From an uncultured delta proteobacterium (GTDB taxonomy: Bacteria; Desulfobacterota; Binatia; Binatales; Binataceae): DNA of 64,000 nt. Positions 2,191 through 33,128 of this stretch are shown one piece after another. The notes below the pieces were generated by a model. The model was not told where the DNA came from, searched no databases, and saw only the letters and a list, made by a program, of their open reading frames with translations. How positions within the stretch are numbered: the stretch's first letter is position 1; every line of letters begins with the position of its first letter. The position numbers and the translations under genes are program-made. Location of the stretch: the NCBI GenBank assembly GCA_963808235.1, contig CAWEEQ010000004.1:2240001-2304000 (forward strand). Direction: 5' to 3'.

Positions 2191-2213
2191 GTTCGCACCG
2201 GGAACCCCAATCG

Positions 2214-2738: not shown

Positions 2739-2754
2739 GAGGACACCTTCCACC

Positions 2755-4602: not shown

Positions 4603-4666
4603 GAGCAATCCTCCTTGAAGGAGATTACTCAGATCAACGACGCGGCACGTGCCGCTGTCAAGCAGA

Positions 4667-4933: not shown

Positions 4934-4964
4934 TGCCGGCAGATGAGCGAACCAGATCCGGGAT

Positions 4965-5135: not shown

Positions 5136-5348
5136 CCGGCACACCCTCCCCGTAAATGTATGATTGCAACCCGCCAGAATCATGACGCTTCGGCGCACTA
5201 AATGCCAACCCTGGAATGGTTTTTTTCTGCGCCAGTATTGCAGAATTATGATCACAAATTGTAGGCGAAAGTTGCTGGTGCCAGCTCAGATCTGCAAGCG
5301 TTCCGACCGCGCGGATGCTATCGTGCGGATGCTCCGTGGAGGGCCAGC

Positions 5349-5792: not shown

Positions 5793-5797
5793 TCCCG

Positions 5798-7243: not shown

Positions 7244-7352
7244 GATTCGCTCCGCCTTGGGCGAGTTCTGTGACCAAGCTATCACGCGCGCGGTCAGCGC
7301 AACAAAGGCCGGCGCAATTGTGGCTCGATTTATATCGTCACGACTTTGGGTT

Positions 7353-8042: not shown

Positions 8043-8128
8043 TGTTCGCTCCGCGTCGGGAGAGTGGTCATTGCACGTCTGCATGTTATTCGCACATGCT
8101 GTTGAATCCGTTTGGAGGAACGCATCGC

Positions 8129-8659
8129 ATGGACGTCAGCAAGATTCCGCCCGGCCGCAATCCGCCTGAGGAGATCAACGTGCTGGTCGAGATTCCGCAA
8201 GGTGGAGTTCCGGTCAAGTACGAACTCGACAAAGCGTCGGGCGCGCTTTTCGTCAATCGCTTTCTGCATACCGCGATGTACTATCCGGCCAACTACGGAT
8301 TCATCCCCAACACGCTCTCCGAAGACGGCGACCCGTGCGACGTAATGGCGCTGTCGCAGGTGCCGGTCGCGCCCGGAGCGGTGATCCGATGCCGTCCGGT
8401 CGGCGCTCTGCTGATGGAAGACGAGAACGGCATCGACGAAAAGATTCTCGCCGTCCCCGTCGATGAGCTAAACCCATACTTCGACGGAATCGCCAACTAC
8501 ACCGACCTGCCGCCGATCATGCTCGACCAGATCGATCACTTCTTTCGCCACTACAAGGATCTCGAGAAAGGCAAATGGGTGAAAGTCGGCGGATGGGTTG
8601 ATCGCGAGGCCGCCGAAAAACTGATCGTCGCCGCGATCGATCGCCTGCACAAAACCTGA
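8129..8659 (+). CDS. ppa: inorganic pyrophosphatase, family I
   Basis: KYELDK, YPANYGFIP, DGDPCD, HFFRHYKDLEKGKW; GGAGG RBS. Confidence 0.96.
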   Translation: MDVSKIPPGRNPPEEINVLVEIPQGGVPVKYELDKASGALFVNRFLHTAMYYPANYGFIPNTLSEDGDPCDVMALSQVPVAPGAVIRCRPVGALLMEDENGIDEKILAVPVDELNPYFDGIANYTDLPPIMLDQIDHFFRHYKDLEKGKWVKVGGWVDREAAEKLIVAAIDRLHKT

Positions 8660-8729
8660 ACCGACCATTGGCCGCAAAATTCAGGGATGAATTGTTCCGC
8701 CTGCCCGCGCCGCGACCAGCCAGCTAATT

Positions 8730-9242
8730 TTACTGGCTCTGGCCCTCGCCTGCCGCGTGAGCGAGCGGCACCAGTTGCGCGATGTCGCACTGGATGAGCG
8801 CCTGGATCTTGTTGTCGATCTGGTAGAAGCGGGTTACTTTGACTTGCGGGATGACGGCGCGGAACTTGGGAACGAAATCGCGCTGCACGTCGAGGCGGGC
8901 CTGCGCGATCGACATCACTTCGTCGAGTTTTTTGCCGGCATCGGCGTCAGTGAGGCTATCGTACTTGGCCGCGTAGGCTTTGAGTTCCTTGACGTGGCGA
9001 TCTTCGATTTTGTCCATTTTGGCTTCGTAGGCGTCATAAACCGGCCAGAACTTCGTCGATTCGTCGGCGGTCAGATTCATGTTGGAGCCGACCGTGGCTT
9101 TGCGCTCCGCGCGGGCGGCGGCCATATCGAGCTGCTTTTGCGAAGGCGCCGGAATCTGTGCCAGGGCGGGCGCGCCGAGGCCGAGTAGGCACGATACGAG
9201 TGACGCTGCGGTGAAAATCGCGAGACGATTGGTGAAAGTCAT
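8730..9242 (-). CDS. secreted helical protein (Spy/CpxP-like)
   Basis: signal peptide ALA|Q; NLTADESTKFWPVYDAY pattern. Confidence 0.65.
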   Translation of the reverse strand: MTFTNRLAIFTAASLVSCLLGLGAPALAQIPAPSQKQLDMAAARAERKATVGSNMNLTADESTKFWPVYDAYEAKMDKIEDRHVKELKAYAAKYDSLTDADAGKKLDEVMSIAQARLDVQRDFVPKFRAVIPQVKVTRFYQIDNKIQALIQCDIAQLVPLAHAAGEGQSQ

Positions 9243-9330
9243 GTACGGTTCCCCTCCGGTTTCGCGTAAGCGAATCCGGCAGGATGCTGCTCGATTGGAG
9301 GGTGATAGTCAAGGAGCGCGGCGACGGCAA

Positions 9331-10713
9331 TCACAGCAGAGGTTGCACGAGTCGGGCGGCGGTCTCGTGGATTCGTTCGAGTAGGCCACGGCGGTTCCAA
9401 TCGTCTAGTTCGATTTGCTTTGAGCTCTCGAGGTCGTTTCGGAACATCAGGTTCATATCCTCGCCGAAGGAATGGCTCAGGATGATCGCGTTGATTTCGT
9501 TATCGCGCGCGATACTCCACCAATCGAGATTCGAAGTGCCGACCGTTGACCATACGCCGTCGACGGTGGTGGTCTTGGCATGGAGCATCTCGCCTTGCCA
9601 CTCGTAGATTTTCACCCCGGCCTCGAGCAAGTCGCTGTAATGAGAGTGCTGCGCCGCGACTAGCATCGGTTCGTCGCTTTGACTCGGCAGCAGCAGGCGG
9701 ACGTCGACGCCGCGCCGCGCGGCATGCTCGAGCGCATGCAAGACCTGGCGGTCGGGCGCGAAGTAAGCATCGGTGACATAGACGTTGGTCTCGGAGCTGA
9801 CGACCGCAGAGATCCAAGTCACATAGATCAAGCTGAACTGTTCCGGCACGCTGTAGATCACCTTCACGATCTCATGGCCCTTGGGTTCGAGCGCTGGAAA
9901 ATAATTGCGCGGACTCAGCGGCGGACCCTTTTGATACTTCCATTCGGCGATGAAAGGTTTTTGGAACTCCGCCACCGCCGGACCTTCGACCTCGATGTCG
10001 GTGTCGCGCCAATATTCCGTCGGACCTTTATTCTCGCTGCTGCTGCTGAGTCCGCTTCCGTAGACCTCGTCTATGTTGATGCCGCCGGTAAACGCGACGC
10101 GGCCATCAATGACCAGCTCTTTACGATGGTTGCGATGGGCGAAGGTCCAAGGAAACTTCGCGGCGAACGGGTTCACCGGCCTGTATTCGAGCACTGCGAC
10201 GCCGCTATCCCGCATTCGATCGAAAAAACTTTTCGACGTGCCGAGTGAACCGAGGCTGTCGTACTCGAGATTCACCTGGACTCCGTGACGCTGCCGCTCG
10301 ATCAGCGCGTCCGCAAACATCTGACCCACGGGGCCGTCGGTAAAGGTGAAGGTTTGCATATTGATGCTGTCGGTGGCGCCGCGAATCGCCGCCAGCATCG
10401 CTCGATAAGTCGCGGCGCCGTTTTCCAGCAGCGTGACTTTGTTGCCGACCACGAAGGGCACATCGCTCATCGCCTGCTCGAAGGCGAGATGGCGATCGAG
10501 AATGTCGCTCGGAGTCCGCTGATGCTCCTTCAGACGGGCGACGACTCGCTCCTCCTGTTCATCGGTCAATTCACCATCAGGCCCGACAATGTCCGGGGGG
10601 TAGGCATGGAATTCCTTCTCATGCAGGAGCGCGTGCATGTCCGGGATAGTGCCGCATCCGCTCGACGCGGAGAGTAAAACGAGGAGCAGGAGGATTGCGC
10701 GCGCGATGGTCAT
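9331..10713 (-). CDS. cls: cardiolipin synthase / phospholipase D family
   Basis: two HKD motifs: HRKELVID and HAKTTTVD. Confidence 0.88.
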   Translation of the reverse strand: MTIARAILLLLVLLSASSGCGTIPDMHALLHEKEFHAYPPDIVGPDGELTDEQEERVVARLKEHQRTPSDILDRHLAFEQAMSDVPFVVGNKVTLLENGAATYRAMLAAIRGATDSINMQTFTFTDGPVGQMFADALIERQRHGVQVNLEYDSLGSLGTSKSFFDRMRDSGVAVLEYRPVNPFAAKFPWTFAHRNHRKELVIDGRVAFTGGINIDEVYGSGLSSSSENKGPTEYWRDTDIEVEGPAVAEFQKPFIAEWKYQKGPPLSPRNYFPALEPKGHEIVKVIYSVPEQFSLIYVTWISAVVSSETNVYVTDAYFAPDRQVLHALEHAARRGVDVRLLLPSQSDEPMLVAAQHSHYSDLLEAGVKIYEWQGEMLHAKTTTVDGVWSTVGTSNLDWWSIARDNEINAIILSHSFGEDMNLMFRNDLESSKQIELDDWNRRGLLERIHETAARLVQPLL

Positions 10714-10874
10714 CGGGCCTGGGATTCGGCGGTGATAGCGAGAGCGATTCTCACCATCATCACTATAACAGGGTCAGCCAGCCTGACACCCGGAGGGCAC
10801 CGGCGCACGAAACCTCTGATCAAATAGCCCCGCTTGTTTCGTGAATGTAAGGTATCGAAAAAGATCTCAAGCGA

Positions 10875-12422
10875 TCATAGTCGCGCCGGGAGGAGGTCGC
10901 GGGCGTCGAGATAGGATGCGAGCGCAGTGGCGTTGGCATCGGGATCTACCAGGCCGATATAGCCGTCGGGGCGGATCAAGTAGACCGCGTTGCGAGTGAG
11001 GCCGGCGCGGGTCATCTCGGAACGCCAGGGGAAGACGTGGATCGGCAATTTTCGCGCGTCGCAGGCGGCGCGGACCTCGGGTGCGGCGTCGCCGTAGACG
11101 TGTACCTGCCAGTCGAGCGAGCTCAGCGGCGCGAAGTTGCCGGCGCTCGTGTCGAGCATCACCCAAGGCAGGCGGTCGCCGCCGTGAACGGTGCCGGCGC
11201 GGCCTTCGCTCAAGCTGCTTCCACGGTAGTTCACCGAGGTCTGTGAGATCGTGCGAAACATCAGGCGGCGCATCGTGGTGAACTTCAACAAGGGCGGGAG
11301 CAGGAGCGGAATGAGACGCATACGGACTAGCTTTGCGATCGCAGTGGGACTGGTCGCGCCGGTGAAAAGGCGATCGGTAGTCGCGACCAGGCGGCGGGCG
11401 AACGCGATTCGTTCGGGCTCGTAGCTCGCGAGGATCGACGCGCTCGCGCGGCCGTGCAAAACCGCGGCGAGCTTCCAGGCAAGATTGATGGCGTCGCCGA
11501 TGCCGGTGTTCATCCCTTGTCCGCCGACTGGGCTGTGGATGTGCGCGGCGTCGCCGACTAAGAACGCGCGGCCGATTCGGAACTGATTGGCGACTCGATG
11601 GTGCACGCGATAGGTCGAGAACCAGTTCACGCGCGCGACGTTGATTTGCATCCAGGCGATCGCGCGCTGGCTTACATCGTTCCACGAGAGGTCGGCACTC
11701 TGGCGTTCGGCATCCTCGCGCACTGTGCCGACGAAGCGCGCGTGCCCGTCGCGTTTCAGCGGGAACAGAGCGAGGAAATCGGTCGGATCGAATCCGACGT
11801 GAATCTCGCCGTTCATGGTGGGGCCGCTGCCTTCGATGTCGGCGACGTAGAAGAGATGATGATAGGCGCCGCCTGGGAAGCCGATCTTGAGCGACTCACG
11901 CACGATCGAATGCGCGCCGTCGCATCCCGCAACGTAGGCAGCCGCGCACGTCTCAGTTGATCCGTCGGAGCGCTTCAAATGCAGGAGAATGTCATCCGAC
12001 GATTCCTGGAAGTCGAGAAGCTCGGTCTGGCGCTCGACCTCGACGCCGGTCGCGGTTAGGCGATCGATAAGCAGGCGCTCGTGCTCGTCCTGTGGAAAGA
12101 TCAGCGCGTAGGGAAACGGGCTCAAGTCAGTACCGAAAGCGCCAAAGGCTCCGTGCGCTTTCTTCTGGCCGGACACCCAGAGATTTACCGCTTCGACTTT
12201 TCGCCCGTTGTCGACAACTGCGTCGGCGAGGCCGGTCTGGAGATATAGCTCGAGGGTGCGCGCCTGCACCGCGAGCGCGCGCGACGTCGTGCCCGGCTCG
12301 GCGGTTTTGTCGACGATCCGCACCCGGACGCCCATCCGCACAAGCCATAGGGCAAGCACCAGGCCGGTCGGTCCCGCGCCGACGATTAGTACGTCAGTAC
12401 CGCGATTCGACGATGTACTCAT
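10875..12422 (-). CDS. FAD-dependent monooxygenase (PheA/TfdB-like)
   Basis: GAGPTG, GCDGAHS, GDAAHIHSPVGGQGMNTG motifs. Confidence 0.93.
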   Translation of the reverse strand: MSTSSNRGTDVLIVGAGPTGLVLALWLVRMGVRVRIVDKTAEPGTTSRALAVQARTLELYLQTGLADAVVDNGRKVEAVNLWVSGQKKAHGAFGAFGTDLSPFPYALIFPQDEHERLLIDRLTATGVEVERQTELLDFQESSDDILLHLKRSDGSTETCAAAYVAGCDGAHSIVRESLKIGFPGGAYHHLFYVADIEGSGPTMNGEIHVGFDPTDFLALFPLKRDGHARFVGTVREDAERQSADLSWNDVSQRAIAWMQINVARVNWFSTYRVHHRVANQFRIGRAFLVGDAAHIHSPVGGQGMNTGIGDAINLAWKLAAVLHGRASASILASYEPERIAFARRLVATTDRLFTGATSPTAIAKLVRMRLIPLLLPPLLKFTTMRRLMFRTISQTSVNYRGSSLSEGRAGTVHGGDRLPWVMLDTSAGNFAPLSSLDWQVHVYGDAAPEVRAACDARKLPIHVFPWRSEMTRAGLTRNAVYLIRPDGYIGLVDPDANATALASYLDARDLLPARL

Positions 12423-13344: not shown

Positions 13345-14679
13345 TCAGTCGGCCGCGACCGGGGAGAGTTCTTCGAGCCGCATGCCGCGCGTCTCCGGCG
13401 CGTATCGCCAGACCAGCAGCGCGCCGAGGACCGGACCTATCGATACAACGGCAACTGCGTTGCCGAGACCGCCGAGCGACTTCGACATCGCACCGATGAT
13501 GAATGGCGTCAGCAGCGAGGCAATCTGCCCGAACAGCTGCACGGTCAGGCTGTATGAAGTTGCGCGGATTTCGGTCGGGAACAGCTCGGCGGAATAGGTC
13601 GCAGTCGCGCTTCGCGCGGCCTGAAACGCCGAGACTGTTACCACCATCGCGGCCAGCATCGCGCCATGACTCGAGCTCTGGAACAGAACAAGGATCGCGA
13701 CCGCGCCGACGACATAGCAAAGTGCGGTCGTCAGTTTTCGTCCGACCCGATCGAGCATCCATCCTGCAAAAACAATTCCGAAACTTCCGAGCACGTAGGC
13801 GAGCACGACCGCATGACCGATTTGCGCCGAGGTCCAATGATGGTCGCGCTTGGCGTAGAGGCTGAAAAAGGTCACCGCCGGCGAACCGACCAGTCCCACG
13901 CAATTCCATAGCAGCGCCACCAGCAGCAGCCGTCCGCGATATGGGCCGCGAAACGGCTCGAAGGCGTTGCGCAAGGCCGCGACCGCGCCCATAGTGCTCT
14001 CGCGCCCGCTCGTACCCAGGCGCCGGAACGCTTCGAACCGCAGTGTCTCGCGAATACCGCGGCGCAAGAAGGCGACCAGTAGCAGGGGCAGAATCCCGAT
14101 GAAGTACATCCCGCGCCAGCCGAATCGCGAATCCGCGACGTATCCGTAAAGAAATCCTCCGGCGACCACGCCAAGCAGACCGACCGCATGCAGCATCGCG
14201 ACGCCGCGTCCGCGTGAATTGTCGGGGAACTCTTCGCTGATCATGATTATCGCGACCGCAAATTCCGCCGACAGGAAAATCTGCGCGCAGCTTTGAAAAA
14301 TAGTGAAGCTCCAGAGGCCGCGGGAGAGCGCGGTGAATAATGTGAACAGCGTGTAGAAAAGAACCGTCGCGGAAATCACCGGCTTGCGTCCGACTCGATC
14401 GGAAAGCATCACGACAAAAAACGCGAGCATCCCGCCAAAGCGCACCACCGAGGCCATCAGGCCAACGGAGCGATCGTCAAGATGGAAGCTGCGCGCGATG
14501 TCGGGGGTGCAGAGATGGAAGATCGTGACGTCGTAACCCTCGAAGACCGTCGCCGACATCAGCAGCGCGAAGAGCACCCACAGGTATCGCCCGTCGCGGA
14601 CCATTGCGAGTGGCGATGCGGCGCTGCCGATATTCGCGGCTATAGCAGAGGCGCCTTCTGGTTCGGTTGGCGTTGGCAT
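13345..14679 (-). CDS. MFS transporter
   Basis: SDRVGRK and LDRVGRK MFS motifs, AELFPTEIRAT, PETRG; 12-TM pattern. Confidence 0.93.
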   Translation of the reverse strand: MPTPTEPEGASAIAANIGSAASPLAMVRDGRYLWVLFALLMSATVFEGYDVTIFHLCTPDIARSFHLDDRSVGLMASVVRFGGMLAFFVVMLSDRVGRKPVISATVLFYTLFTLFTALSRGLWSFTIFQSCAQIFLSAEFAVAIIMISEEFPDNSRGRGVAMLHAVGLLGVVAGGFLYGYVADSRFGWRGMYFIGILPLLLVAFLRRGIRETLRFEAFRRLGTSGRESTMGAVAALRNAFEPFRGPYRGRLLLVALLWNCVGLVGSPAVTFFSLYAKRDHHWTSAQIGHAVVLAYVLGSFGIVFAGWMLDRVGRKLTTALCYVVGAVAILVLFQSSSHGAMLAAMVVTVSAFQAARSATATYSAELFPTEIRATSYSLTVQLFGQIASLLTPFIIGAMSKSLGGLGNAVAVVSIGPVLGALLVWRYAPETRGMRLEELSPVAAD

Positions 14680-14716
14680 CCGCGGTGCTCCCCGTGATAT
14701 CGGCGCGATCTTCAAT

Positions 14717-14772
14717 TGCCGGGGGCGAGACTCGAACCCGCACGGAACTTTCGCTCCAGAGGATTTTAAGTC
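14717..14772 (-). repeat. displaced 3' half of tRNA-Leu(UAA) (att-like copy 2)
   Basis: 56 bp from the anticodon stem-loop (GACTTAAAATCC) to the discriminator, nearly identical to 40375-40430; no 5' half or CCA. Confidence 0.92.
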
Positions 14773-15031
14773 GTTTAATTATAACGAAAAACTTTCTTTT
14801 GTTTATTGATTTTATTTCAAACAGATGTAAGAAAGTTTCAGTGTAAGTATTGAAGAAATCTGAACAATATCAGGCATCTTCAGCTCTGGCGTTCTAAAGG
14901 GCCAGGCACTCCACCGCACTTCGGCGTGAACTGACGCGCCGCTCGCAGAGTTCGAGAAGGTGGCTGGGCGGCGCTATCCCGTATTCCGCATCGTCCCGCA
15001 ATGACGCCGGCAACCGCGGTTAAAGTGTCGT

Positions 15032-15457
15032 CTATCGCATCACCGTTCGACGATCCTGGATCGTGTTGAGGTACGCGATTATTTTGCCGATCACTTCGCC
15101 GATCCCGTACTCTCCCCGTTCACCCTGACCTAGCTCGTAAAGCTTCTCTCCCCAAACCGGCATCTCGTGACTCCCATGCGCCCGCGCCGTATCGCGACCG
15201 TCGATCAGCTCGGCGATTCGATGCGCCGGCAGCGGCATCCCGTATTTGTCGCCGAGCTTGCGCAGATTTGCCGGCGGCGTGGCCAGGCTCTTCGCCACCG
15301 GACCGTCGCCGAGAGCGTCCGTGCCATGGCATGACGCGCAATAGCGGACGAAATAGCGATGCCCGTCGGCCACATCATCGCCGGCGGACAGCGCAGGCTG
15401 CGCGACGCTCAGCGCGGCGCCCAGAGCAAAGATCAATCCGAACACTTTCAGTTTCAT
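15032..15457 (-). CDS. mono-heme cytochrome c (class I)
   Basis: signal peptide, CASCH, EMPVWG distal Met. Confidence 0.9.
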   Translation of the reverse strand: MKLKVFGLIFALGAALSVAQPALSAGDDVADGHRYFVRYCASCHGTDALGDGPVAKSLATPPANLRKLGDKYGMPLPAHRIAELIDGRDTARAHGSHEMPVWGEKLYELGQGERGEYGIGEVIGKIIAYLNTIQDRRTVMR

Positions 15458-15481
15458 GGCTTCACCATGGCTTTGAAATTC

Positions 15482-16426
15482 TCAATGCGCAACCGGCGTT
15501 GCGCTCGCGGTCGGTGTAGTTATCGCAGTCGGCGACGGTTGCATCGCCGCAGCTGCCACTTCAGGATCCGGGATGTATTCGGGCGGATACGCAAGCCGCC
15601 GCCAGCTCATCAACAGAAGCGTCAGCGCTCGCGATTGCTCCGGCTCGAAGTTGTAATCGGGCATCTGCGTGGAGGGCGAAACCGCACTCGCCTTCGTCAG
15701 ATGCTGCACGTTCCAGTTGAACATCGTGTGCCCGCCGCTCACGTGCGCGAAATTCAGCAGTTCGGGATTCCGGTCGCCTTCGTAAGTCAGCTCGGGTCCG
15801 GTAGCGCCGCCGCGCCCTTCGACCACATGGCATAGCAGACACTTTTTCTTCTTGAACAACACCTTGGCGAGATTGATCTCGTCCATCCCCGGTGTGGCCG
15901 CATCATGGCGATGACAAAAATTGCATCGCATCTGGATCATCTCGCCCATCGTGAGCCCGTTTCGTCTTGCCAGCGCGCGCGAGAGCATCGGATCGTCCCA
16001 TCCCTGCCCACCTTGATGAGCGCCCCCGACTGTCGTCGCCGCTCCGTCGCCGCCGTGACACGGCGTGCATCCGAACTTCGCGAACTCATGCTTCGCGATC
16101 CAGTCGTTCATCGGATGTGGCTTCAGCGGCTCGACGATCGTGGCGGGAAGCACCGAAGACCATTCGTAGCCGAGATGGCACGTGATGCACCGATCGGTCA
16201 CCCCAATTTTAGGAATCCAGATTTGCTGAATCCCCGGCCGGAAGTCTCGCGCCGCCTCGCCCTTGCCGTAGTGCCCGAGCAGTTGCGGAAACTTCTGCTG
16301 ATAGATTCCGAATTCGGTGCTGTACTCGAGCCAGAAGCAGACCGCGACCAGCGCCAGGAACAGGATGGACATCGCGACCATCCAGCCGAAGTCCTTCGCT
16401 TCGAACGAGTCGCTATTCTCCGCCAT
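15482..16426 (-). CDS. membrane-anchored tetraheme cytochrome c
   Basis: N-terminal TM helix; CITCH, CTPCH, CNFCH, CLLCH. Confidence 0.9.
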   Translation of the reverse strand: MAENSDSFEAKDFGWMVAMSILFLALVAVCFWLEYSTEFGIYQQKFPQLLGHYGKGEAARDFRPGIQQIWIPKIGVTDRCITCHLGYEWSSVLPATIVEPLKPHPMNDWIAKHEFAKFGCTPCHGGDGAATTVGGAHQGGQGWDDPMLSRALARRNGLTMGEMIQMRCNFCHRHDAATPGMDEINLAKVLFKKKKCLLCHVVEGRGGATGPELTYEGDRNPELLNFAHVSGGHTMFNWNVQHLTKASAVSPSTQMPDYNFEPEQSRALTLLLMSWRRLAYPPEYIPDPEVAAAAMQPSPTAITTPTASATPVAH

Positions 16427-16427
16427 T

Positions 16428-17729
16428 TCAGTAAAGCCGCGGAGTCTCGGGGCGCGGCTGGCCGGGCCAATAGATCCTCCAATAGGGACCGCGCAAGTAA
16501 ACGCCAAGTATGATCAGCATGATGATCGCGAGCGTCGCGACGGCGAAGGTTGCGTTCTGCCGCTTGCGCTCGGGCGCGAGCCATCGCCCTTCGGCCCTCG
16601 GCGGCGAGCGATCGAGCCACGGCCACAGCGTCAGCACGCCGAGCAGGAATCCGGGCAGCAGTATTCCGCCCAGCAACGCGCCGCTGATCGTATAGCCGCC
16701 GAAGCGAACCGTGGTTGAAGCGACCAGCTCCTGTAGCCAGACGAAATACCACGGCGCCTTCGCCGGATTCGGAGTGACGGAAGGATTGGCGAGACCCTCG
16801 AGCGGCGCGTTGAAGAGGATCGCGGCCAGCAGCGTGATGTTGAACACGACCAGGAATACCAGCACGATTCGCCGCAACATGTTCGGCGACGAGAAAACCT
16901 GGTCGGACTCTTCGAGTCCGGTCGAGCTCATCACCTGTACCGAGGTGCCCGGCGTAATTCCAAACAGTGAGTAACTCTTGGTCTTCGGAGTCGCCTTCGG
17001 GATCATTACCCGGTCATTGCGGACCCGCTCGATCGCTGCAAGGCCGCCGTCCTTGCGTACGCGCCACATATGATAGGCGAACAGCACCCACACGAAGACC
17101 GGCAGGAAAAAAACGTGCAGCACGTAAAATCGCAGCAAGGTCTGCTGTCCGATTTCATGGCCGCCAAGCAGAATGAACTGAATCGTCGGTCCCACGACCG
17201 GCGCCTGCTTCGCGATGCTGGTGCCGACCGTGATTGCCCAGAACGCGAGCTGATCCCACGGCAGCAGATAGCCGGTGAACGACAGGAACAACGTCGCGAG
17301 AAAGAGCACGACTCCGACGACCCAGTTGATCGCGCGAGTGCCGCGGTAAGCGCCGGTGAAGAACACTCGCGCCATGTGGATATAGACGACCGCGACCATA
17401 CCCTCCGCGGCCCATCGATGCTGGTTTCTGAGCAGGCGGCCGAAGCTGACGGCGTATTGCAGGTCCTTGATGCTCCCGTACGCACGCTCGGTCGACGGCA
17501 CGTAGAAGAACATCAGCATCACGCCCGTGACGGTCAGGATGAGCAGCAGCGATGCCGACGCGGTGCCGAGCCAGAACGAGTAGTTCCAATCCATGCTCGC
17601 GCGCGCGACTTTGGCCGGGAACCAGTGGAGCCAGAAGTTCTTGACGATAGCTTCGGACGATTCGCGCTCGCTCTCAGGCGACCATGCCCACGAAGTTTTG
17701 CGCCACAGCGCTTTGATCTTGTCGCCCAC
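16428..17729 (-). CDS. cytochrome b of a Rieske/cytochrome b complex (b6 + subunit IV fused)
   Basis: RNQHRW...YIH and VLHV...AYH heme-b His pairs, GYLLPWDQ, PNPAKAPWYF Qo-site loop. Confidence 0.93.
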   Translation of the reverse strand: MGDKIKALWRKTSWAWSPESERESSEAIVKNFWLHWFPAKVARASMDWNYSFWLGTASASLLLILTVTGVMLMFFYVPSTERAYGSIKDLQYAVSFGRLLRNQHRWAAEGMVAVVYIHMARVFFTGAYRGTRAINWVVGVVLFLATLFLSFTGYLLPWDQLAFWAITVGTSIAKQAPVVGPTIQFILLGGHEIGQQTLLRFYVLHVFFLPVFVWVLFAYHMWRVRKDGGLAAIERVRNDRVMIPKATPKTKSYSLFGITPGTSVQVMSSTGLEESDQVFSSPNMLRRIVLVFLVVFNITLLAAILFNAPLEGLANPSVTPNPAKAPWYFVWLQELVASTTVRFGGYTISGALLGGILLPGFLLGVLTLWPWLDRSPPRAEGRWLAPERKRQNATFAVATLAIIMLIILGVYLRGPYWRIYWPGQPRPETPRLY

Positions 17730-17732
17730 CGC

Positions 17733-18194
17733 TCAAGCCTTGCCTTTTGCGCCGACAATCAGACGGAAGTCGCGCGCGACGTCCTTTGCGCTATCGACTT
17801 CGAGGAAGCCGTCGGGCGAAACTGACGTGGCAAACCAATCGAGCGGACTGGGCGCAGGTCCCGAGATAACGGTGCCGTCGGGACTAAAGCGGCTGCCGTG
17901 GCATGGGCAGTCGAACTCGGTGTCGCGCCACTGCACGTTGCATCCGAGATGCGTGCAGATGGCGGAGATCACGTGGAACGCGTCCTTCTGACGAATCACG
18001 AACAGGCGATGCGCCTGGTCGAGCGTGTAGCCGTCGGGATAGTCGTCGGGGCGCTTGAGCTTGAAGCGGCTCGGCGGTTCGTAGAGCACGTTCGGGAAGA
18101 ATGCCCTGCCTGCTGCGCCGATCTGTGCGACGAAGGCGGCCAACACGGAGCCCTTGCCGATGAAGCGCAGAATCTTTCGCCGATCGCCGTCCAT
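17733..18194 (-). CDS. Rieske [2Fe-2S] protein
   Basis: Tat-like DRRKIL plus TM segment; CTHLGC and CPCHGS; ATG overlaps the upstream stop. Confidence 0.93.
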   Translation of the reverse strand: MDGDRRKILRFIGKGSVLAAFVAQIGAAGRAFFPNVLYEPPSRFKLKRPDDYPDGYTLDQAHRLFVIRQKDAFHVISAICTHLGCNVQWRDTEFDCPCHGSRFSPDGTVISGPAPSPLDWFATSVSPDGFLEVDSAKDVARDFRLIVGAKGKA

Positions 18195-20113
18195 CAGCCC
18201 GCAGTCTCTTCGAACTGAAAACGCTCCATCGTGATTGCCGAGGTCGGGCACCGCGTCGCACACAGGCCGCATCGGATGCACTTGGCCTCGTCGTAAAGAA
18301 AGGCGCTGCGGGTCTGCGCTTCCGCCATCACGCCGGCCACCCGCTCCTGATCGGCGATTTCTTCCGCGAGCGTGAAGTGCAGGCAATGCTCCGGACAAAT
18401 GTCGACGCATCGATTGCACAGGATGCATTTCGCGCCGTCGTAGATCGGATGGATATGGCAGTAGAGGCATCGCTCGGCCTGCTCGCGCGCGTCGCCCGGC
18501 GTAAACGTGGACTCGACTTCCGTGATACCGGTGCGACGCGAGAGCGGAACCAGCGGAATCTCGCGATGCTTCAGCTCGTAGTTATCGACCATCCGGTAGG
18601 TATCGGTCGGCAGCTCCTCGATCGTGACAAGCATCCGCGGCTGGCCAAGCGGCTTCCCGCGCAGGTACGCATCGATCCCGCGCGCGGCAACCTTGCCATG
18701 CTGCGCGCAAGTGATCAGCAGCGACGGCGGAAAGGCCGCATCGCCACCTGCGAATACACCCGCGATGCCGGTCTCGAGCGTGACCGGATCGATCTTGAGC
18801 GTTCCCGCCGGCGTGATTGTGACCCCATCTTCAGGCGTGACGAATGACAGGTCCGGCGCCTGCCCGATCGCGAGTATGACCGCGTCGGCGTCAACGATAC
18901 GTTTATCGTTCTCGTCGAATTGCGGCCGGAAGCGGCCGGCGTCGTCGAATACCTTGACGCACTTCACCAGTTCGATTCCGGCGGCATGGCCGTCGCGGAC
19001 AACGATTCGCTTCGGTCCCCAGCCCGGGAGAAAAGTGACGCCTTCGTCGCGGGCGATATCGAGTTCCTCGCGCCCCTGCGCCGATTTCATCGCCGGCATT
19101 TCGGCCCCCGACTCGAGACTCGCGACCGTAACCTCCAGCGCACCGCGCCGCGCCGCCTCGCGCGCCACGTCCAGCGCCACGCGCATCGTGCCGGCCGCGA
19201 CAGTTTGCTCTTCCTCCTGGGACATCACGAGGCCGGGCAGGAGCGCGCGAACCGCGGTCCGAGCCGCATCGATCGCGACCAGGCCGCCGCCTATTACGAC
19301 CACCTTGCCGCCCAGCGCAACGCGATAGCCGCGATTTATGTTGAGCAGATAGTCGATCGCCTTGATCACGCCGTCGGCATCGGTGCCTTCGATCGGAACT
19401 GCGCGGCCGCGCGACGCGCCAACGGCCAGGAAAATTGCTTCGTAACCCTGCTGCTTCAGCTCCCGAACTCCAAAGCCGGGTTTAAGCGGTGCCGAGTAGC
19501 GAAACTCGACGCCGAGCGCTTCGATCTCGCGGACCTGGCAGTCGATCACCTCGCGCGGCAAGCGGTAGGCCGGAATTCCGTATCGAAGCATCCCGCCCGC
19601 GTGCTCCATCGCTTCGAACACCGTCACGCTGTAGCCCATCAGCGCCAGATCGTTTGCGCACGCGAGCCCGGCCGGCCCTGCGCCGACGACCGCGACCTTG
19701 CGCTTCGACCCACCGACGTGAGGCTGCGCGCCGGGTATGTCGATATGACCGGGAGTAACGCTGCCGCCGCCCGTCGGACCCGCGATCATCTCGCGCACTC
19801 CCTTGGAGGAGAGCGCCTCGGGGCCGAATTGCTCGGTGAGAAAACGCTTGAGTGCGCGAATCGTCACAGGCGCGTCGATTTTGCCACGGCGGCATGCGTC
19901 TTCGCATGGAGCGCCGCAAGCGCGTCCGCATATCGAGGCGATCGGATTGGGTGAGCGCGCGACGCGGTATGCCTCCGCGAGGCGTCCTTCCGCGATCAGC
20001 TGAACGTAGCGGCCCGCATCCGTCTTGACCGGACATGCATCGAGGCACGGCACATTTTTGCGGAACCACCACAAGTCGCGCGGCGTCGCGTCGATCGAAT
20101 TTCCATCGCTCAT
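18194..20113 (-). CDS. FAD/NAD(P)-dependent oxidoreductase, GltD/NfnB/DsrL-like, with C-terminal 2x[4Fe-4S]
   Basis: CLDACP..CGRACGAPCEDAC Fe-S domain, GAGPAG, GGGLVAID, CILCNRCVDICP, CIRCGLCATRCP; no signal peptide. Confidence 0.9.
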   Translation of the reverse strand: MSDGNSIDATPRDLWWFRKNVPCLDACPVKTDAGRYVQLIAEGRLAEAYRVARSPNPIASICGRACGAPCEDACRRGKIDAPVTIRALKRFLTEQFGPEALSSKGVREMIAGPTGGGSVTPGHIDIPGAQPHVGGSKRKVAVVGAGPAGLACANDLALMGYSVTVFEAMEHAGGMLRYGIPAYRLPREVIDCQVREIEALGVEFRYSAPLKPGFGVRELKQQGYEAIFLAVGASRGRAVPIEGTDADGVIKAIDYLLNINRGYRVALGGKVVVIGGGLVAIDAARTAVRALLPGLVMSQEEEQTVAAGTMRVALDVAREAARRGALEVTVASLESGAEMPAMKSAQGREELDIARDEGVTFLPGWGPKRIVVRDGHAAGIELVKCVKVFDDAGRFRPQFDENDKRIVDADAVILAIGQAPDLSFVTPEDGVTITPAGTLKIDPVTLETGIAGVFAGGDAAFPPSLLITCAQHGKVAARGIDAYLRGKPLGQPRMLVTIEELPTDTYRMVDNYELKHREIPLVPLSRRTGITEVESTFTPGDAREQAERCLYCHIHPIYDGAKCILCNRCVDICPEHCLHFTLAEEIADQERVAGVMAEAQTRSAFLYDEAKCIRCGLCATRCPTSAITMERFQFEETAG

Positions 20114-20117
20114 CGCG

Positions 20118-20474
20118 CTACTTCTTGCAGAAGGTCCTGATGTACGCGACGAGGTCGTGCATCTCGCCATCCTCGAAGCCTGAGCTCCACGCCTGCATGT
20201 CTTTACTGAGACCGGCGGCCGCGCCGCCGTTCTTGATCACATTGAACATCGTATCGTCGGAAATCTTGCCCATCGCGGCACAGTCAGTGAAATTGCGCGG
20301 GCTGGTGGACAGTGTGGCCGCGGCGGGACCATCGCCCTTGCCGCCGGGGCCGTGACATTTCACGCAAAATGTATCGTAGTTGGTCTTGGCGGTGGCCATG
20401 TCGCCGGCGCGCGCGGGCACAAACGCCAGTGCGATGATTGTGCACGCAGCAAGGATTGAGATGATTCGATTCAC
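20118..20474 (-). CDS. mono-heme cytochrome c
   Basis: GTG start with GGAGG RBS, signal peptide, CVKCH, DMQAW. Confidence 0.88.
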   Translation of the reverse strand: MNRIISILAACTIIALAFVPARAGDMATAKTNYDTFCVKCHGPGGKGDGPAAATLSTSPRNFTDCAAMGKISDDTMFNVIKNGGAAAGLSKDMQAWSSGFEDGEMHDLVAYIRTFCKK

Positions 20475-20512
20475 GTCGTCCTCCGTCTCATTGTTGCGCA
20501 ACTCAAGCCGAT

Positions 20513-20803
20513 TCAACGAGCCTTGAGGTATTCGAGTATCGCCTTGGCGTCTTCCGGCGGAAAATTTCCGAGCGTACGCATATGCATCATGATCTGGTCC
20601 CACTCGTAGGGCGCCTTCTCGGAGCCCGGGCGCGCGTTGTGACAGGTGTTGCAGTAGACCGGCCACAGTTTAGCACCCTCCCGGAAGAGTCGCTTGTGCT
20701 CAGCCGGAGACATATCTTCTTGCGCCTGGGCCCGGACGGAAGTCCGTGCCGTCCCGATCAGGAGCATTGCAAATGCAATTGCCACGAATATTTTCTTCAT
20801 CAT
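20513..20803 (-). CDS. small mono-heme cytochrome c
   Basis: signal peptide, CNTCH, WDQIMMHM. Confidence 0.85.
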   Translation of the reverse strand: MMKKIFVAIAFAMLLIGTARTSVRAQAQEDMSPAEHKRLFREGAKLWPVYCNTCHNARPGSEKAPYEWDQIMMHMRTLGNFPPEDAKAILEYLKAR

Positions 20804-20814
20804 CGTGACTCCGC

Positions 20815-22377
20815 TCAGAACCCAACCGTGATCTGGCTCAGGAACGCGTGATCGTTCGGGATTGAGCGCGCCGATGTCTCGACGCCCTTGGAGTTAACGA
20901 ACAGCCCTCCGTCGCGCGGCAGTTCGATATCGAATTCGTTTTGCCAGACGATCGACGGTGCGATCCAATAGTCCAGACCCAACGCCACTTCGCGAGCATG
21001 CGGCGCGTACGTCGCAGGCGACCCGTTGATGCCGAAATCGGGGACCAATCCCACCTGCGTGCCGCCCAGCCCGACGCCGGTCGCGCCCTGGATGTCGGCG
21101 ATCGAAACGCCGCGCTGGTTTACGCCCGAATAACGCACCAGCGGCTCGAATCGACGGAGGTAATTGTCGATCACCTCGGGAACGCCGGGGACTTTAACCC
21201 CGCTCAGGAAGTAGCCGGCCTGCAGGTACCATCCCTGTCGATTGTCGGACGCCTGCCCCATCGGCATCTGGCGATACGATGACAGCCACTCGCCCCGGGT
21301 CTGCAGGTTGCCGACGAAGTAATTGAAATCCACGCCCCACGAGTTGAACCAATCTCCGTTGTTCCACTTGCCGTTGTAGGTGGAGGCGCCGAGCTCGAGC
21401 CTGCCCCACTTCGTATCCACCGGCAGGGGGTAGATTCGAAAGCGCCCGCCGATGGACTTGCCGTTGGTCTGGCTGAAGGCGACTGCGGTCGGACTCGACA
21501 TCGCCGCGCCGAGGACGTTCGAGCTGAAATTCGGTCCGTTGCCACCCCAGACCGTCCAATCGAAATCCTGTCCGAGCGCGCCAAATTGCATTCCGCCGCG
21601 AAGCTGGATTCCAAGCTCGCCCGGTGGAACCACGGGCTCGACTCCGAACGGCAGTGGCGCAGTGACGAACCGGTTTACCCACATCGGACTCTGCGCTTCA
21701 TACCAATCGCCGAACGGTTGATCGAAAAGCCCGGCGACGACCGTCATGTACTTGTTTAGAAAAATCTGAAAATCCGCAGTGGACAGATCGGTTCCTGTCC
21801 CGGTCGCTCCAAACCCCGCGCTGAATACGCCCTGAAAGAGTATCCAGTCCGTCGGGCGATACAGGATCATCGGTTCCCAATCGAAGAAGAACGAGTTCTG
21901 CGACGCGTGATGCAGGCCGTCGAGCGCTCCGCTCTGCTGGTCGTAGATGAATTGGCCGCCGGCCGCCCCGGTCACCGTGAACGAATGCGATCCGAGGTAT
22001 TGCTCGACCGCAGTGCCAAACTGCGACGACGCGATCGGCGCTTCGACCTTCGTCTGCAAGGTCTTCACCTGGGCGTTGGTCTGCTGAAGCTCGAGCGTGG
22101 TCTCCTTCAGCTTCTGATCGGTGCTCTGCAGTTGGCGCGTGGTGGTCTCGACGCTTGAATCTTTCGTCTCGAGCTGCTGAACCTTGACCTCGAGTGAGCG
22201 AATAACTTCGCGGTCGCGCTTGCGCTCCTCTCGCATCTGACGCATCTCGGCTCTGATTTCCTTGAGCGCGGCGGCGGCGGTAGCGTCACTGTCTGCCGCG
22301 CGTGCCGGCCCCGCCATTGATAACGCCGCGACTGCGATTGCGAACAGAAATGTCGAGAAAATTCGTCCGGCTCGCAT
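20815..22377 (-). CDS. outer-membrane beta-barrel (porin-like) with N-terminal coiled coil
   Basis: signal peptide ARA|A, heptad coiled coil, amphipathic beta-strands, C-terminal SQITVGF; GGAG RBS. Confidence 0.8.
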   Translation of the reverse strand: MRAGRIFSTFLFAIAVAALSMAGPARAADSDATAAAALKEIRAEMRQMREERKRDREVIRSLEVKVQQLETKDSSVETTTRQLQSTDQKLKETTLELQQTNAQVKTLQTKVEAPIASSQFGTAVEQYLGSHSFTVTGAAGGQFIYDQQSGALDGLHHASQNSFFFDWEPMILYRPTDWILFQGVFSAGFGATGTGTDLSTADFQIFLNKYMTVVAGLFDQPFGDWYEAQSPMWVNRFVTAPLPFGVEPVVPPGELGIQLRGGMQFGALGQDFDWTVWGGNGPNFSSNVLGAAMSSPTAVAFSQTNGKSIGGRFRIYPLPVDTKWGRLELGASTYNGKWNNGDWFNSWGVDFNYFVGNLQTRGEWLSSYRQMPMGQASDNRQGWYLQAGYFLSGVKVPGVPEVIDNYLRRFEPLVRYSGVNQRGVSIADIQGATGVGLGGTQVGLVPDFGINGSPATYAPHAREVALGLDYWIAPSIVWQNEFDIELPRDGGLFVNSKGVETSARSIPNDHAFLSQITVGF

Positions 22378-22422
22378 AGTCTCCCCCGATCTGCGCCGAC
22401 TCACTCGGCGCTTCCGTCTGAG

Positions 22423-22438
22423 AGCAACAGTTGTGCCC
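22423..22438 (-). promoter_or_regulatory. putative sigma54 (-24/-12) promoter of the porin-cytochrome operon
   Basis: minus strand gGGCAC-AACTG-TTGCT, ~45 nt upstream of the porin ATG. Confidence 0.65.
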
Positions 22439-22855
22439 CAGATACCCATATTTGCGTTCACCTAGCGCCGAGACGCGTCGCAGCTACGTCTACATGATCA
22501 CCCGCCGCTGAGTCCCCGAGCATTGGACCGAGCTCGTCCGCAAACTTTCTCGCAAAACAATCAGACTTTCGAAAGAATCGACCTAATCGGCCGTCTCATG
22601 ATCGAACATAAATGTCCCCTGAAGCACCAAACTAGGGTGCGGACTCCTCTTAAGGATCGGGATCGCCGTCATTCGACCCTTGGCTATGACGCCTGTCGCC
22701 AACGGTGGCAGCGCCTGTATCCGAACGATACAAGATTCGGGTTGGCGCCCGAATTTCGTCGGATAGCCGACACTCAATTGCCGCAATCATTCGGCACGAA
22801 CAATGAAAAGGAATGCTGGAGTTGGCTATCAGCGATCCGGGATTAGGAGAGGAAA

Positions 22856-23083
22856 ATGCAATTTCAGATCAATTCATCTGAATCGGCGATGACTGAAGCG
22901 GTCGAGACGCAAATCCTCGCGCACGTCAAAGCGCTCGAAGACTACGTTCCCCCGACGTTCGAGTCACCACTATCTTTCCGCCTGACGGCTATGGCGTGCT
23001 GGAAACTCGTGACGGGCGGGAAATCTATTTTCGTAGCGACCCTGCCGAGGCTCGCGCCGGAGCTTGAACCGTCGCAACGGTGA
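22856..23083 (+). CDS. small hypothetical protein (N-terminus weakly HPF/RaiA-like)
   Basis: strong AGGAGAGGA RBS; MQFQINSSESAMTEAVETQILAHVKALE. Confidence 0.4.
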   Translation: MQFQINSSESAMTEAVETQILAHVKALEDYVPPTFESPLSFRLTAMACWKLVTGGKSIFVATLPRLAPELEPSQR

Positions 23084-23087
23084 GTCT

Positions 23088-23606
23088 ATGAAAGCGAATA
23101 TGAGCGCTGCCAAGAAGCCGTCCGCAAAGCGAGCCAAGAAGCTCAACGACACCCGCAAGATACGAAACCTAACCGAAGAGCTGAGCCGCGAAGAATACCT
23201 GCTCGGGATGCCGCTGCTGGACGCGGCGGTCGCCGGGGTGATTCTCGGCTTCAAGCCGTCGGATCGCGAGATGCGCACGCAGGCGCAGCGATGCTGGGAA
23301 CTTCTGAAGCCGCGACTCAATCAGCATCTGCTCAGCGAAGATGAAACCCTGCTGCCATGGGCTGAAGGTGAAGGCGGCATCTCTGCCGGGGTCATGGATC
23401 GAATCAAAAAGAACCACCGCGAGATCCGCGCTCTGATCGGCAGGCTAATCGGAGTGTCATTCGAAGAGGATCCAGACAAGGTCGTCTCGGTGGCCGGCAA
23501 AGCGCTGTGCGCACTTGCGATCAAGCTCGATGACCTCATCGACAGTGAAGAGATGCGACTGCTGCCAACGCTCAGAAGGATGCTGTTCGCCCAGCTCAGC
23601 GATTAG
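23088..23606 (+). CDS. hemerythrin-like domain protein (degenerate ligands)
   Basis: HLLSEDETLLP, KNHREI, DSEEMRLLP repeats of the HHE pattern. Confidence 0.65.
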   Translation: MKANMSAAKKPSAKRAKKLNDTRKIRNLTEELSREEYLLGMPLLDAAVAGVILGFKPSDREMRTQAQRCWELLKPRLNQHLLSEDETLLPWAEGEGGISAGVMDRIKKNHREIRALIGRLIGVSFEEDPDKVVSVAGKALCALAIKLDDLIDSEEMRLLPTLRRMLFAQLSD

Positions 23607-30436: not shown

Positions 30437-30453
30437 AAAAGGAGAATCGAACC

Positions 30454-33101: not shown

Positions 33102-33128
33102 CAGGGCTCGCGAGCTTTCGGGCAGGAG

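Follow-up and report, generated by a model that had tools for sequence, protein, structure and literature searches.

Can a bacterium join an outer-membrane porin, a set of c-type cytochromes and an inner-membrane Rieske/cytochrome b complex into one electron-transfer chain that reaches cytoplasmic NAD(P)? The question is raised by an operon of an uncultured delta proteobacterium of the Binataceae. It lies in a stretch of 64,000 nucleotides, hereafter the window (contig CAWEEQ010000004.1 of assembly GCA_963808235.1, positions 2,240,001 to 2,304,000), which belongs to a metagenome-assembled genome of Candidatus Binatus; this is the genus meant in all counts below. Between positions 22438 and 15032 of the window, eight co-oriented open reading frames (ORFs) are found on the minus strand. 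They encode a porin, the small cytochromes c cytcA and cytcB, an iron–sulfur flavoprotein, a Rieske protein, a cytochrome b, a tetrahaem cytochrome c and a third small cytochrome, cytcC (Table 1). We tentatively read the operon as one three-layer electron-transfer chain, made up of a two-piece porin–cytochrome, periplasmic cytochromes and an anammox-type Rieske/cytochrome b–flavoprotein complex, which would combine uptake of electrons of the Fe(II) type with electron bifurcation. Taken as a whole this reading is possible, its chances being somewhat short of even, while the three-layer architecture is in itself reasonably supported.

As a unit, the operon is well conserved. Twenty genus loci were fetched, of which 18 have the porin and enough DNA to be used; L034, from the unpublished genome G018, lies on a contig that ends after cytcB, and L036 carries a diverged porin paralogue. 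The same gene order (porin, cytcA, cytcB, flavoprotein, Rieske, cytochrome b, tetrahaem cytochrome c) recurs in all 18 usable loci, with 58–95% identity, and the tetrahaem cytochrome follows cytochrome b in each of them. The gene-neighbourhood search that had been proposed as a check in a first-pass annotation of this DNA thus finds porin, small cytochromes, flavoprotein and Rieske/cytochrome b conserved together. The trailing cytcC is adjacent in some relatives, about 2 kb off in others, or not found within the fetched range. The porin is present in 19 of the 24 genus genomes (17 of 22 without the unpublished G018 and G023). In the five genomes in which no porin was found, the flavoprotein query matches only partial GltD paralogues, with 36–38% identity, and therefore the head and the core of the operon are either present together or not found together (19 and 5 of 24). 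The two unpublished genomes enter this count, one row each in two alignments and locus L034, and no conclusion depends on them. The first-pass annotation had proposed a single island-borne unit spanning the outer membrane, the periplasm, the quinone pool and NAD(P). The unit agrees with the conserved order and co-occurrence as well as with the predicted porin–cytcA interface and the presence of Cyc2 in the same slot, both described below; its placement on an island is not supported.

The gene families named for the eight ORFs are borne out by Pfam and NCBIfam, with the porin recognized only through a sub-threshold match to Porin_O_P (PF07396; 16.5 bits, cut-off 20.9). An AlphaFold2 model from a 53-row alignment (mean pLDDT 73.7, the barrel mostly above 80) has a long N-terminal coiled coil, about residues 32–128, and 16 main strands. 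In a Foldseek comparison the top rank goes to OprP (2o4v; E 9e-13), with OprO (4rjw) at rank 4; OmpM1 (8bym, rank 5) and DcaP (6eus, rank 42), both of them coiled-coil porins, are among the matches as well. These two share with the window porin a 16-strand barrel that follows a coiled-coil stalk, and they are trimeric; they differ in being solute or tethering porins without a cytochrome partner, and the SLH domain of OmpM1 is not seen in the window porin. Many invariant arginines line the strands, at alternate positions such as R312/R314. The porin has 621 cluster representatives as relatives in the protein collection. Among the matches listed none carries a function-specific name, nearly all being a 'hypothetical protein' and two having generic labels, and a precomputed PF07396 match is found on 6 of the 120 listed. 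In the nearest Protein Atlas cluster PF07396 is present on 14% of the members, and the Atlas clusters give only a generic porin. NCBIfam has no name for the porin, for its distant relatives or for the Cyc2-like heads discussed below, and the porin matches no Ext model.

The porin contains no cysteine and no fused haem motif; the CXXCH sits on the separate gene cytcA. Porin and cytcA are each single-copy in the window genome. The protein cytcA, of which the mature form has 72 residues, contains an invariant His73–Met74 pair, and its haem is probably ligated by His and Met. The next protein, cytcB, matches the Pfam families Cytochrome_CBB3 and Cytochrom_C and has a weak NCBIfam match to cytochrome 579 (37 bits, cut-off 280); it is probably a soluble shuttle.

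A complex of the mature porin, mature cytcA and haem was modelled with our own alignments and a riding haem. It reaches an ipSAE of 0.90 in three of three runs, the best of three controls having 0.00. Of 80 solved complexes 58 attain this mark, as do 2 of 110 mismatched pairs, a calibration that is rough because of the alignments and the riding haem. At least 88% of the contacts are common to the runs, and the pLDDT of the partner is at least 85. The confident contacts involve the periplasmic ends of porin strands 1–10 and 14, as well as loop residues 227–234, which fall within the most conserved stretch of the family, FDQPFGDWYEAQSPMW, and touch Cys53/His54 of cytcA. Conserved residues make up 22 of the 41 interface positions, versus 116 of 351 in the rest of the barrel (one-sided Fisher p 0.008). 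From the contact sites and the strand order of the model, cytcA is therefore placed as a predicted plug in the periplasmic mouth of the barrel. The first-pass annotation had named, as its own counter-case, a porin that groups with solute-specific porins and shows no cytochrome interface. The window porin indeed shares its fold with solute-specific porins, OprP and OprO being its best structural matches, while an interface is predicted. Moreover, the OprP-like fold does not refute a porin–cytochrome, because the same fold is reported for the fused cytochrome-porin Cyc2 (PMC8406198; this source, PMC12954380 and PMC13741234 are cited from parts of their text).

Separate cytochromes in separate outer-membrane barrels, encoded by adjacent genes, are also found in MtrAB, MtoAB and PioAB (PMC8406198; PMC13741234), the insertion being a prediction in the present case. 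In those systems the barrels have 26 strands and the membrane is spanned by decahaem cytochromes, versus 16 strands and one haem here. Since a single haem cannot span the barrel, the substrate would need to come into the pore.

The porin and cytcA also form a module beyond the genus. A porin-profile scan with one genome per species identified 101 relatives, of which 79 loci were kept. Their hosts are mostly labelled Binatus, Binataceae or Binatia, the rest carrying broad labels (delta proteobacterium, Proteobacteria, Thermodesulfobacteriota, Acidiferrales). Among the genomes searched the module is confined to Binatia, and it is common in soil and peat metagenomes. In 77 of the 79 loci cytcA directly follows the porin, and the other two end at a contig edge; cytcB is the third gene in most. 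What comes next varies. In 45 loci it is the flavoprotein–Rieske/cytochrome b set; a copper nitrite reductase of the NirK type follows in 10 (13 when either strand is counted), a cupredoxin with a TIGR03118 protein in 7, and 17 loci have other content or too little DNA. The NirK-type gene matches TIGR02376 at 6e-44, below the cut-off, and AniA (1kbv) at 1e-43. In L095, L098, L104, L107, L108 and L111 a plastocyanin/azurin-type cupredoxin stands in the place of cytcB, followed by the TIGR03118 protein (369 bits), which belongs to a family of unknown function; in some cases an SGL/NHL beta-propeller protein is encoded as well.

Within the genus, L036 (G017:C1:692500-706500, 296-11908) has a porin paralogue with 42% identity and its own cytcA. 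The row continues with a UbiA-type prenyltransferase, rpe, a CarboxypepD_reg protein, CoxB fused to a cytochrome c, and NirK, and it is divergent from prk-fba-rbcL (phosphoribulokinase, class-II aldolase and RuBisCO large chain). This arrangement hints at lithoautotrophy in part of the genus. Genome G017 carries this module, linked to CoxB, NirK and the Calvin cycle, as well as one linked to Rieske/cytochrome b. In two other genus genomes, a second module copy is situated directly upstream of the main operon (L026 of G014, 13864-16210; L029 of G019, 8316-9458; also L045 and L046). This copy consists of a porin (cut by the contig end in L029), cytcA, a diverged cytcB and a NirK-type gene, so that NirK and the Rieske/cytochrome b–flavoprotein set are neighbours there.

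The nature of the module is further illustrated by its counterparts in sister operons. A full-length flavoprotein homologue is found in 41 of 201 sampled Binatia genomes; within the Binataceae it is present in 8 of 9 genus genomes and in 0 of 16 genomes of other genera. Twenty flavoprotein loci from across the class were fetched, the 10 closest with 48–66% identity (tblastn) and the 10 distant ones with 37–41%. Of the closest operons, six are headed by a Cyc2-type protein (divergent in one case), three by porin and cytcA, and one by neither. The Cyc2-type heads are barrel proteins of 462–490 amino acids or a tblastn match of such a protein. Those of L129, L130, L131 and L133 contain one CXXCH in the context A[VL]P[ST][FY]ARQT...CxxCH...PxL. 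According to Keffer et al., AxPxFAR[Q/K][T/Y] upstream and PxL downstream of the CXXCH are diagnostic for Cyc2 (PMC8406198). The three sister-operon porins are 26–33% identical to the window porin, and each is accompanied by a cytcA homologue. In L130 (8077-8553), L131 (10418-10894) and L133 (5760-6440) an exported protein of 158–226 amino acids with a coiled coil and a BamE domain is encoded between Cyc2 and cytcB. The window porin carries its coiled coil within its own chain.

The 10 distant loci (L135–L144, from other Binatia families) have no outer-membrane head. They encode cytochromes c with 7–10 haems and proteins of 900–1280 amino acids, three of three tested being molybdopterin oxidoreductases. 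A maximum-likelihood tree of 32 flavoproteins draws, for speed, on the full set of 20 class loci, on 3 loci of the genus and on 8 out of the 79 with a porin. It separates an outer-membrane-linked clade (22 rows, support 100/100) from a molybdoenzyme-linked clade. Within the former, Cyc2 and porin heads interleave: L129, with Cyc2, and L127, with porin and cytcA, are sisters at 100/99, and the head labels need at least 4 and 3 changes. Cyc2 and the porin–cytcA pair have thus been repeatedly exchanged in one operon slot. Judged by its gene contexts, the flavoprotein–Rieske–cytochrome b core seems to act as an adaptor of a general kind, to which various redox modules of the periplasm can be joined.

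In what respects does the pair resemble Cyc2? Cyc2 and Cyt572 have a 16-strand barrel for which OprP (2o4v) and OprO (4rjw) are the reported templates, and one c-type haem per barrel lies at or inside the periplasmic opening of Cyc2 (PMC8406198), as predicted here. The slot in orthologous operons is the same, and in both cases a small periplasmic cytochrome comes next, here one with weak likeness to cytochrome 579. In contrast with Cyc2, in which an N-terminal CXXCH domain is fused to the barrel, two polypeptides are involved here, the haem being probably ligated by His/Met and the porin having a coiled-coil stalk at its N-terminus. That the porin is homologous to Cyc2 was considered and is rejected on an hhalign probability of 0.3%. 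Because fold class, single haem, predicted place and operon slot agree in the absence of homology, porin and cytcA are read as a two-piece analogue of Cyc2, made of two unrelated pieces, and not as a member of its family. In the literature searched, as far as the texts were available, such a two-piece porin–cytochrome and its repeated exchange with Cyc2 are undescribed. Term searches of one review (PMC13741234) likewise return no 16-strand porin with a separate monohaem cytochrome, and no description of a Binatia Rieske/cytochrome b operon is found in the literature searched.

Complexes of Rieske and cytochrome b with an NAD(P) oxidoreductase were reportedly proposed for Kuenenia by Kartal in 2013, and the likeness to them that the first-pass annotation had pointed out is borne out by the core of the operon. 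The best structural matches of the Rieske protein in the PDB are 9rk3 (1e-21) and 9rk4 (2e-21), with b6f Rieske proteins at 8e-16 and 1e-13. Judged by their descriptions and by the Ser/Tyr pattern, 9rk3 and 9rk4 are the two anammox Rieske proteins Kustd1480 and Kuste4569 (PMC12954380). The potentials of the anammox Rieske proteins are +303 and +335 mV (PMC12954380). The operon protein keeps the cluster-side serine of CPCHGS and, like one of the two anammox proteins, has Phe in the position of the Tyr; it probably belongs to the high-potential anammox type. About 23 kb past the end of the window (G000:C4:2326713-2327120) the genome encodes a second Rieske paralogue, which has 44% identity to that of the operon.

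Cytochrome b combines the Pfam domains Cytochrome_B (1.3e-41) and Cytochrom_B_C (6.5e-6) in one protein of 433 amino acids, and the four haem-b ligand histidines are aligned and kept. It has no cysteine, and Trp takes the place of the Cys in the canonical b6 of the genome; because there is no cysteine, the protein would be without covalent haem cN. The genome has three cytochrome b loci, and the canonical b6, which is one of them, does have the haem-cN cysteine. An N-terminal histidine was considered as a marker of a proposed extra haem b, and it is non-discriminating, as it occurs in the canonical b6 as well. The canonical locus, with split b6 and subunit IV (C4:2483145-2484726), has its own multihaem cytochrome, which is 29% identical to the tetrahaem cytochrome of the operon. 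In NCBIfam, the operon cytochrome b scores 251.5 bits on ExtP (cut-off 290) and 73.7 on ExtQ (cut-off 150), the two models being NF040969 and NF040970, and both scores are below the cut-off. The ext cluster of Geobacter sulfurreducens comprises the porin-like ExtI, cytochromes and the Rieske/cytochrome b genes ExtO/P/Q, and it has been read as an outward conduit and an oxyanion reduction system. The present operon differs from it in that cytochrome b stays under the curated ExtP/ExtQ cut-offs and in that the porin is without an Ext match.

The flavoprotein has no signal peptide and contains the Pfam domains Fer4_20 and Pyr_redox_2, followed by two C-terminal Fer4 domains, in line with the GltD-like FAD/Fe-S protein that had been named at first. 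Its score on NCBIfam PRK12771 (405 bits) is below the cut-off. The PDB matches are 9bov (7e-77), NfnA 9n5u, the StnC-type 8oh5_C and NfnB 4ylf_B (3e-60), the best being larger NfnB-type fusions. With its C-terminal ferredoxin domain, the protein would have room for four [4Fe-4S] clusters; the same number is present in the anammox subunit in the AlphaFold3 models of Hauser et al. (PMC12954380).

The core is thus a relative of the anammox Rieske/cytochrome b complexes and joins that known kind as a new member, the association between flavoprotein and membrane complex being putative. With the Kuenenia stuttgartiensis complexes (Kuste4569-4574 and Kustd1480-1485) it has several elements in common: a cytochrome b of the b6 type that includes a subunit-IV part, a multihaem cytochrome c taking the place of cytochrome c1/f, the closest Rieske relatives with the cluster-side serine, a cytoplasmic Fe-S flavoprotein of the FAD/NAD(P) type whose domains allow for four clusters, and a menaquinone background. 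The differences concern the fusion of b6 and subunit IV in one protein, the four haems c instead of six or eight (PMC12954380) and the lack of a partner resembling the octahaem HAO. Furthermore, the operon is headed by an outer-membrane porin–cytochrome and its host is not an anammox bacterium.

The window genome provides the setting in which such a chain would work. A MenA match is above the cut-off, none of the UbiA_proteo matches is, and no Mqn genes are found, so far as this genome is concerned; the host, like Kuenenia, probably uses menaquinone. For such a host the energetic argument that has been published, with the Rieske protein at about +300 mV, menaquinone at about −70 mV and NAD(P) at −320 mV (PMC12954380), therefore applies as well. 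Three haem-copper oxidase loci are encoded elsewhere in the genome. In the proposed mechanism, the outer membrane would contain a 16-strand barrel of the trimer type, with its coiled-coil stalk in the periplasm and its periplasmic mouth plugged by the mature cytcA. The periplasm would contain cytcB and cytcC as soluble monohaem cytochromes, and the inner membrane the Rieske protein, the fused b6/subunit IV and the tetrahaem cytochrome, with the NfnB-like flavoprotein on the cytoplasmic face. A small reductant that enters the pore, most plausibly Fe(II), would reduce the haem of cytcA, from which electrons would pass via cytcB to the terminal oxidases encoded elsewhere or, in relatives, to NirK. 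The Rieske/cytochrome b complex would oxidize menaquinol. One electron would leave through the high-potential Rieske protein and the tetrahaem cytochrome to the same cytochrome c pool, kept oxidized by the three oxidase loci, while the other would travel over the b haems, the four [4Fe-4S] clusters and FAD to NAD(P)+, as in the Kartal/Hauser bifurcation.

Downhill and uphill branches of iron oxidation are exemplified by the rus and petI operons of Acidithiobacillus ferrooxidans. The proposed chain has a logic in common with that of this species and with the Cyt572–Cyt579 chain of Leptospirillum, in which an outer-membrane monohaem oxidase feeds periplasmic cytochromes that serve an oxidase (downhill) and a bc complex (uphill) (PMC13741234). 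In the acidophiles the uphill branch consists of a reversed bc1 complex and a reversed complex I that the proton-motive force powers (PMC13741234), whereas here it would be the flavoprotein on the Rieske/cytochrome b complex.

The direction of electron flow is the point at which readings diverge. Uptake is favoured because Cyc2, the replacement of the module, oxidizes Fe(II), which is its demonstrated activity (PMC8406198); because the module recurs directly before the sinks NirK, CoxB and cupredoxin; and because it once adjoins Calvin-cycle genes. The same architecture could also serve as an outlet, in which a menaquinol electron would pass over the tetrahaem cytochrome, cytcB and cytcA and exit by way of the pore, with complexed Fe(III), Mn(III/IV) or humic quinones as possible acceptors, and this downhill export would pay for the reduction of cytoplasmic NAD(P)+. 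The operon encodes no terminal reductase, a high-potential anammox-type Rieske protein occurs in a menaquinone organism, and the Kartal/Hauser scheme requires a high-potential sink on the positive side (PMC12954380), all of which suits an outlet; the predicted porin–cytochrome contact is neutral on direction. Such an outlet would, however, be redundant where the module precedes sinks of its own (NirK in 10 loci, CoxB–cytochrome c in L036). It also sits uneasily with the Fe(II) oxidation by the Cyc2 that is swapped for the module in sister operons (PMC8406198), and a single haem at the periplasmic mouth is unable to reach an insoluble external acceptor. Export is therefore considered unlikely. 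It is improbable that the scheme runs as a confurcation, with Fe(II) electrons from the cytochrome c pool and NAD(P)H electrons from the flavoprotein converging at the quinol-oxidation site to reduce menaquinone, so that low-grade electrons would enter the quinone pool without a Qi site. Bifurcating enzymes are reversible in principle, by our own reasoning the membrane potential favours an electron path from cytoplasm to periplasm, and a cytochrome b without haem cN fits an altered site on the negative side. On the other hand, the reaction would consume the NAD(P)H that a lithotroph needs, no published precedent is found in the literature consulted, as far as the texts were available, and nothing computed here separates the reverse from the forward scheme.

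The porin could finally be an ordinary substrate-specific anion channel, for instance for nitrite, with cytcA and cytcB as mere carriers for enzymes such as NirK, the plug as an artefact and the Rieske/cytochrome b complex feeding the cytochrome c pool. OprP and OprO as top structural matches, the weak Porin_O_P match with PF07396 on some relatives, the invariant arginines at alternate strand positions and the NirK-type reductase after the module in 10 of 79 loci would all be expected of such a channel. The window genome, however, keeps the module without NirK, which also disposes of the idea of a nitrite porin in this genome. Nor does a channel give a reason why, with variable genes in third and fourth place, one 95-amino-acid cytochrome is the neighbour of the porin in 77 of the 79 loci. 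The complex score of 0.90 versus 0.00 for the controls, the enrichment of conserved residues at the interface and the repeated replacement of the pair by a bona fide cytochrome-porin, Cyc2, argue against it as well, and we regard the channel as quite unlikely.

Several points nevertheless weigh against Fe(II)-type uptake coupled to bifurcation. The porin–cytcA interface is a model score and not an experiment, and the OprP/OprO-like fold with its invariant arginines would suit an anion channel better than a path for Fe2+. As kin genomes are non-independent, the counts given above overstate their support. Between the 53-row porin profile and a 4-row Cyc2-like profile, hhalign finds no homology (E 0.23). 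Cyc2-like queries (tblastn) have no match in the window genome or in the 99 porin loci (79 and 20), and the Cyc2 motifs AxPxFAR[Q/K][T/Y] and PxL are absent from cytcA, which reads ...LWPVYCNTCHNARPGS... at this place. The core would lack the covalent haem cN that is placed in the published AlphaFold3 models of the Kuenenia complexes, and the bifurcation scheme has never been demonstrated, even in anammox bacteria (PMC12954380). Furthermore, neither NirK, for which there is only a 25-bit cupredoxin match, nor RuBisCO is found in the window genome, which is 93% complete. Autotrophy was thus considered for this genome and set aside, and lithoautotrophy is not indicated in it.

The layout of the operon and its surroundings are summarized in Table 1. 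The eight packed or overlapping genes lie as first annotated; judged by the coordinates, neighbouring genes either overlap or are separated by 1 to about 38 nt. The ATG of the Rieske gene overlaps the stop codon of the flavoprotein gene by 1 nt, and by these coordinates the two genes are translationally coupled. The count of seven CXXCH motifs is exact for the cytochromes (1+1+4+1), an eighth such string, CLYCH, being located in an Fe-S motif context in the cytoplasmic flavoprotein. Inside the operon no sigma-70 promoters or terminators are found above shuffle expectation. The sigma-54-like promoter that had been noted at its head is substantiated: the −24/−12 element is present in 16 of 18 aligned porin upstream regions of the genus (one row from the unpublished G018), and rpoN is encoded in the window genome, in which a regular expression for such sites gives 49 candidates. 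The near-palindrome TTTTGCGAGAA has 24 strand-wise matches in the genome, none of them adjoining another candidate sigma-54 promoter, and no regulon can be derived from it.

Table 1. Features of the operon and of its upstream region, in window coordinates.
Feature	Position	Strand	Remarks
Sigma-54-type −24/−12 element GGGCAC-N5-TTGC	22424..22438	-	45 nt 5' of the porin ATG; from genome regular expression and sequence reading
Leader inverted repeat GCGCCGA...TCGGCGC	22393..22411	-	between −24/−12 element and ribosome-binding site; conserved in genus alignment
Conserved near-palindrome TTTTGCGAGAA	22547-22557		about 110 nt upstream; possible activator site
Porin, 520 aa	20815..22377	-	signal peptide, N-terminal coiled coil, 16-strand barrel, C-terminal ...TVGF
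cytcA, 95 aa, exported monohaem cytochrome c (CNTCH)	20513..20800	-	
cytcB, exported monohaem class-I cytochrome c (CVKCH)	20118..20474	-	GTG start at 20474 inferred
NfnB/GltD-like FAD/NAD(P) Fe-S flavoprotein, 639 aa, cytoplasmic	18194..20113	-	
Rieske [2Fe-2S] subunit	17733..18194	-	RRKIL Tat-type anchor
Fused cytochrome b6 + subunit-IV-like protein, 433 aa	16428..17729	-	
Membrane-anchored tetrahaem cytochrome c (CITCH, CTPCH, CNFCH, CLLCH)	15482..16426	-	alternative start 16507
cytcC, exported monohaem cytochrome c (CASCH)	15032..15457	-	trailing gene
Hemerythrin-HHE gene, divergent	23064..23606	+	Pfam PF01814, E 6.4e-7

The divergent hemerythrin-HHE gene is the sole conserved flank, being found upstream in most genus loci, and its product may be a sensor of O2, NO or iron. 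Pfam gives no match for the small ORFs at 22523-23083. In the window the operon is also flanked by genes for an MFS transporter and a Rieske oxygenase, which were found in none of the 20 fetched genus loci. As to the proposed island, there is no tRNA within 18 kb, no integrase or transposase domain in the tested ORFs and no anomaly in G+C content (0.59–0.65 versus 0.55–0.64 elsewhere in the window). On the evidence of its sequence, the operon is taken to be an accessory, sigma-54-controlled unit of the genus in variable surroundings, for which an island is not demonstrable. Farther away (29315-38305), the window contains genes for acetate kinase and phosphoketolase, after which two P-type cation ATPases are encoded in tandem; a DUF2934 extension is present at the N-terminus of the first ATPase.

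What would the operon mean for the biology of these bacteria? In the broadest interpretation, porin and cytcA are an independently evolved two-piece counterpart of Cyc2, constituting a family of outer-membrane oxidases for Fe(II) or small reductants. Binatus would then comprise cryptic iron oxidizers that reduce O2 or nitrite and obtain NAD(P)H from menaquinol bifurcation and not from a reversed complex I. That all of this holds is doubtful and, on balance, rather unlikely. Cyc2 is the main genetic marker by which iron oxidizers are called in metagenomes. A non-homologous two-piece equivalent would, if it exists, be invisible to Cyc2 screens, and a lineage abundant in soil and peat would join the iron cycle. 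Ever since Rieske/cytochrome b complexes with an integral NAD(P) oxidoreductase were first suggested for anammox bacteria, they have been puzzling. If the interpretation is correct, complexes of the anammox type gain a physiological role in an organism that is not an anammox bacterium. In different relatives the core is joined to a porin–cytochrome, to Cyc2, or to multihaem cytochromes and molybdoenzymes, which speaks for a module of general use that would link NAD(P) and the quinone pool with a redox couple in the periplasm. With four haems and no anammoxosome, the core encoded in the window would provide simpler test proteins than those of anammox bacteria, and the swaps between Cyc2 and porin plus cytcA in one slot are a natural experiment on how a porin–cytochrome can be constructed. 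Altogether, the operon may represent a new route by which electrons are moved between the cell surface and metabolism.

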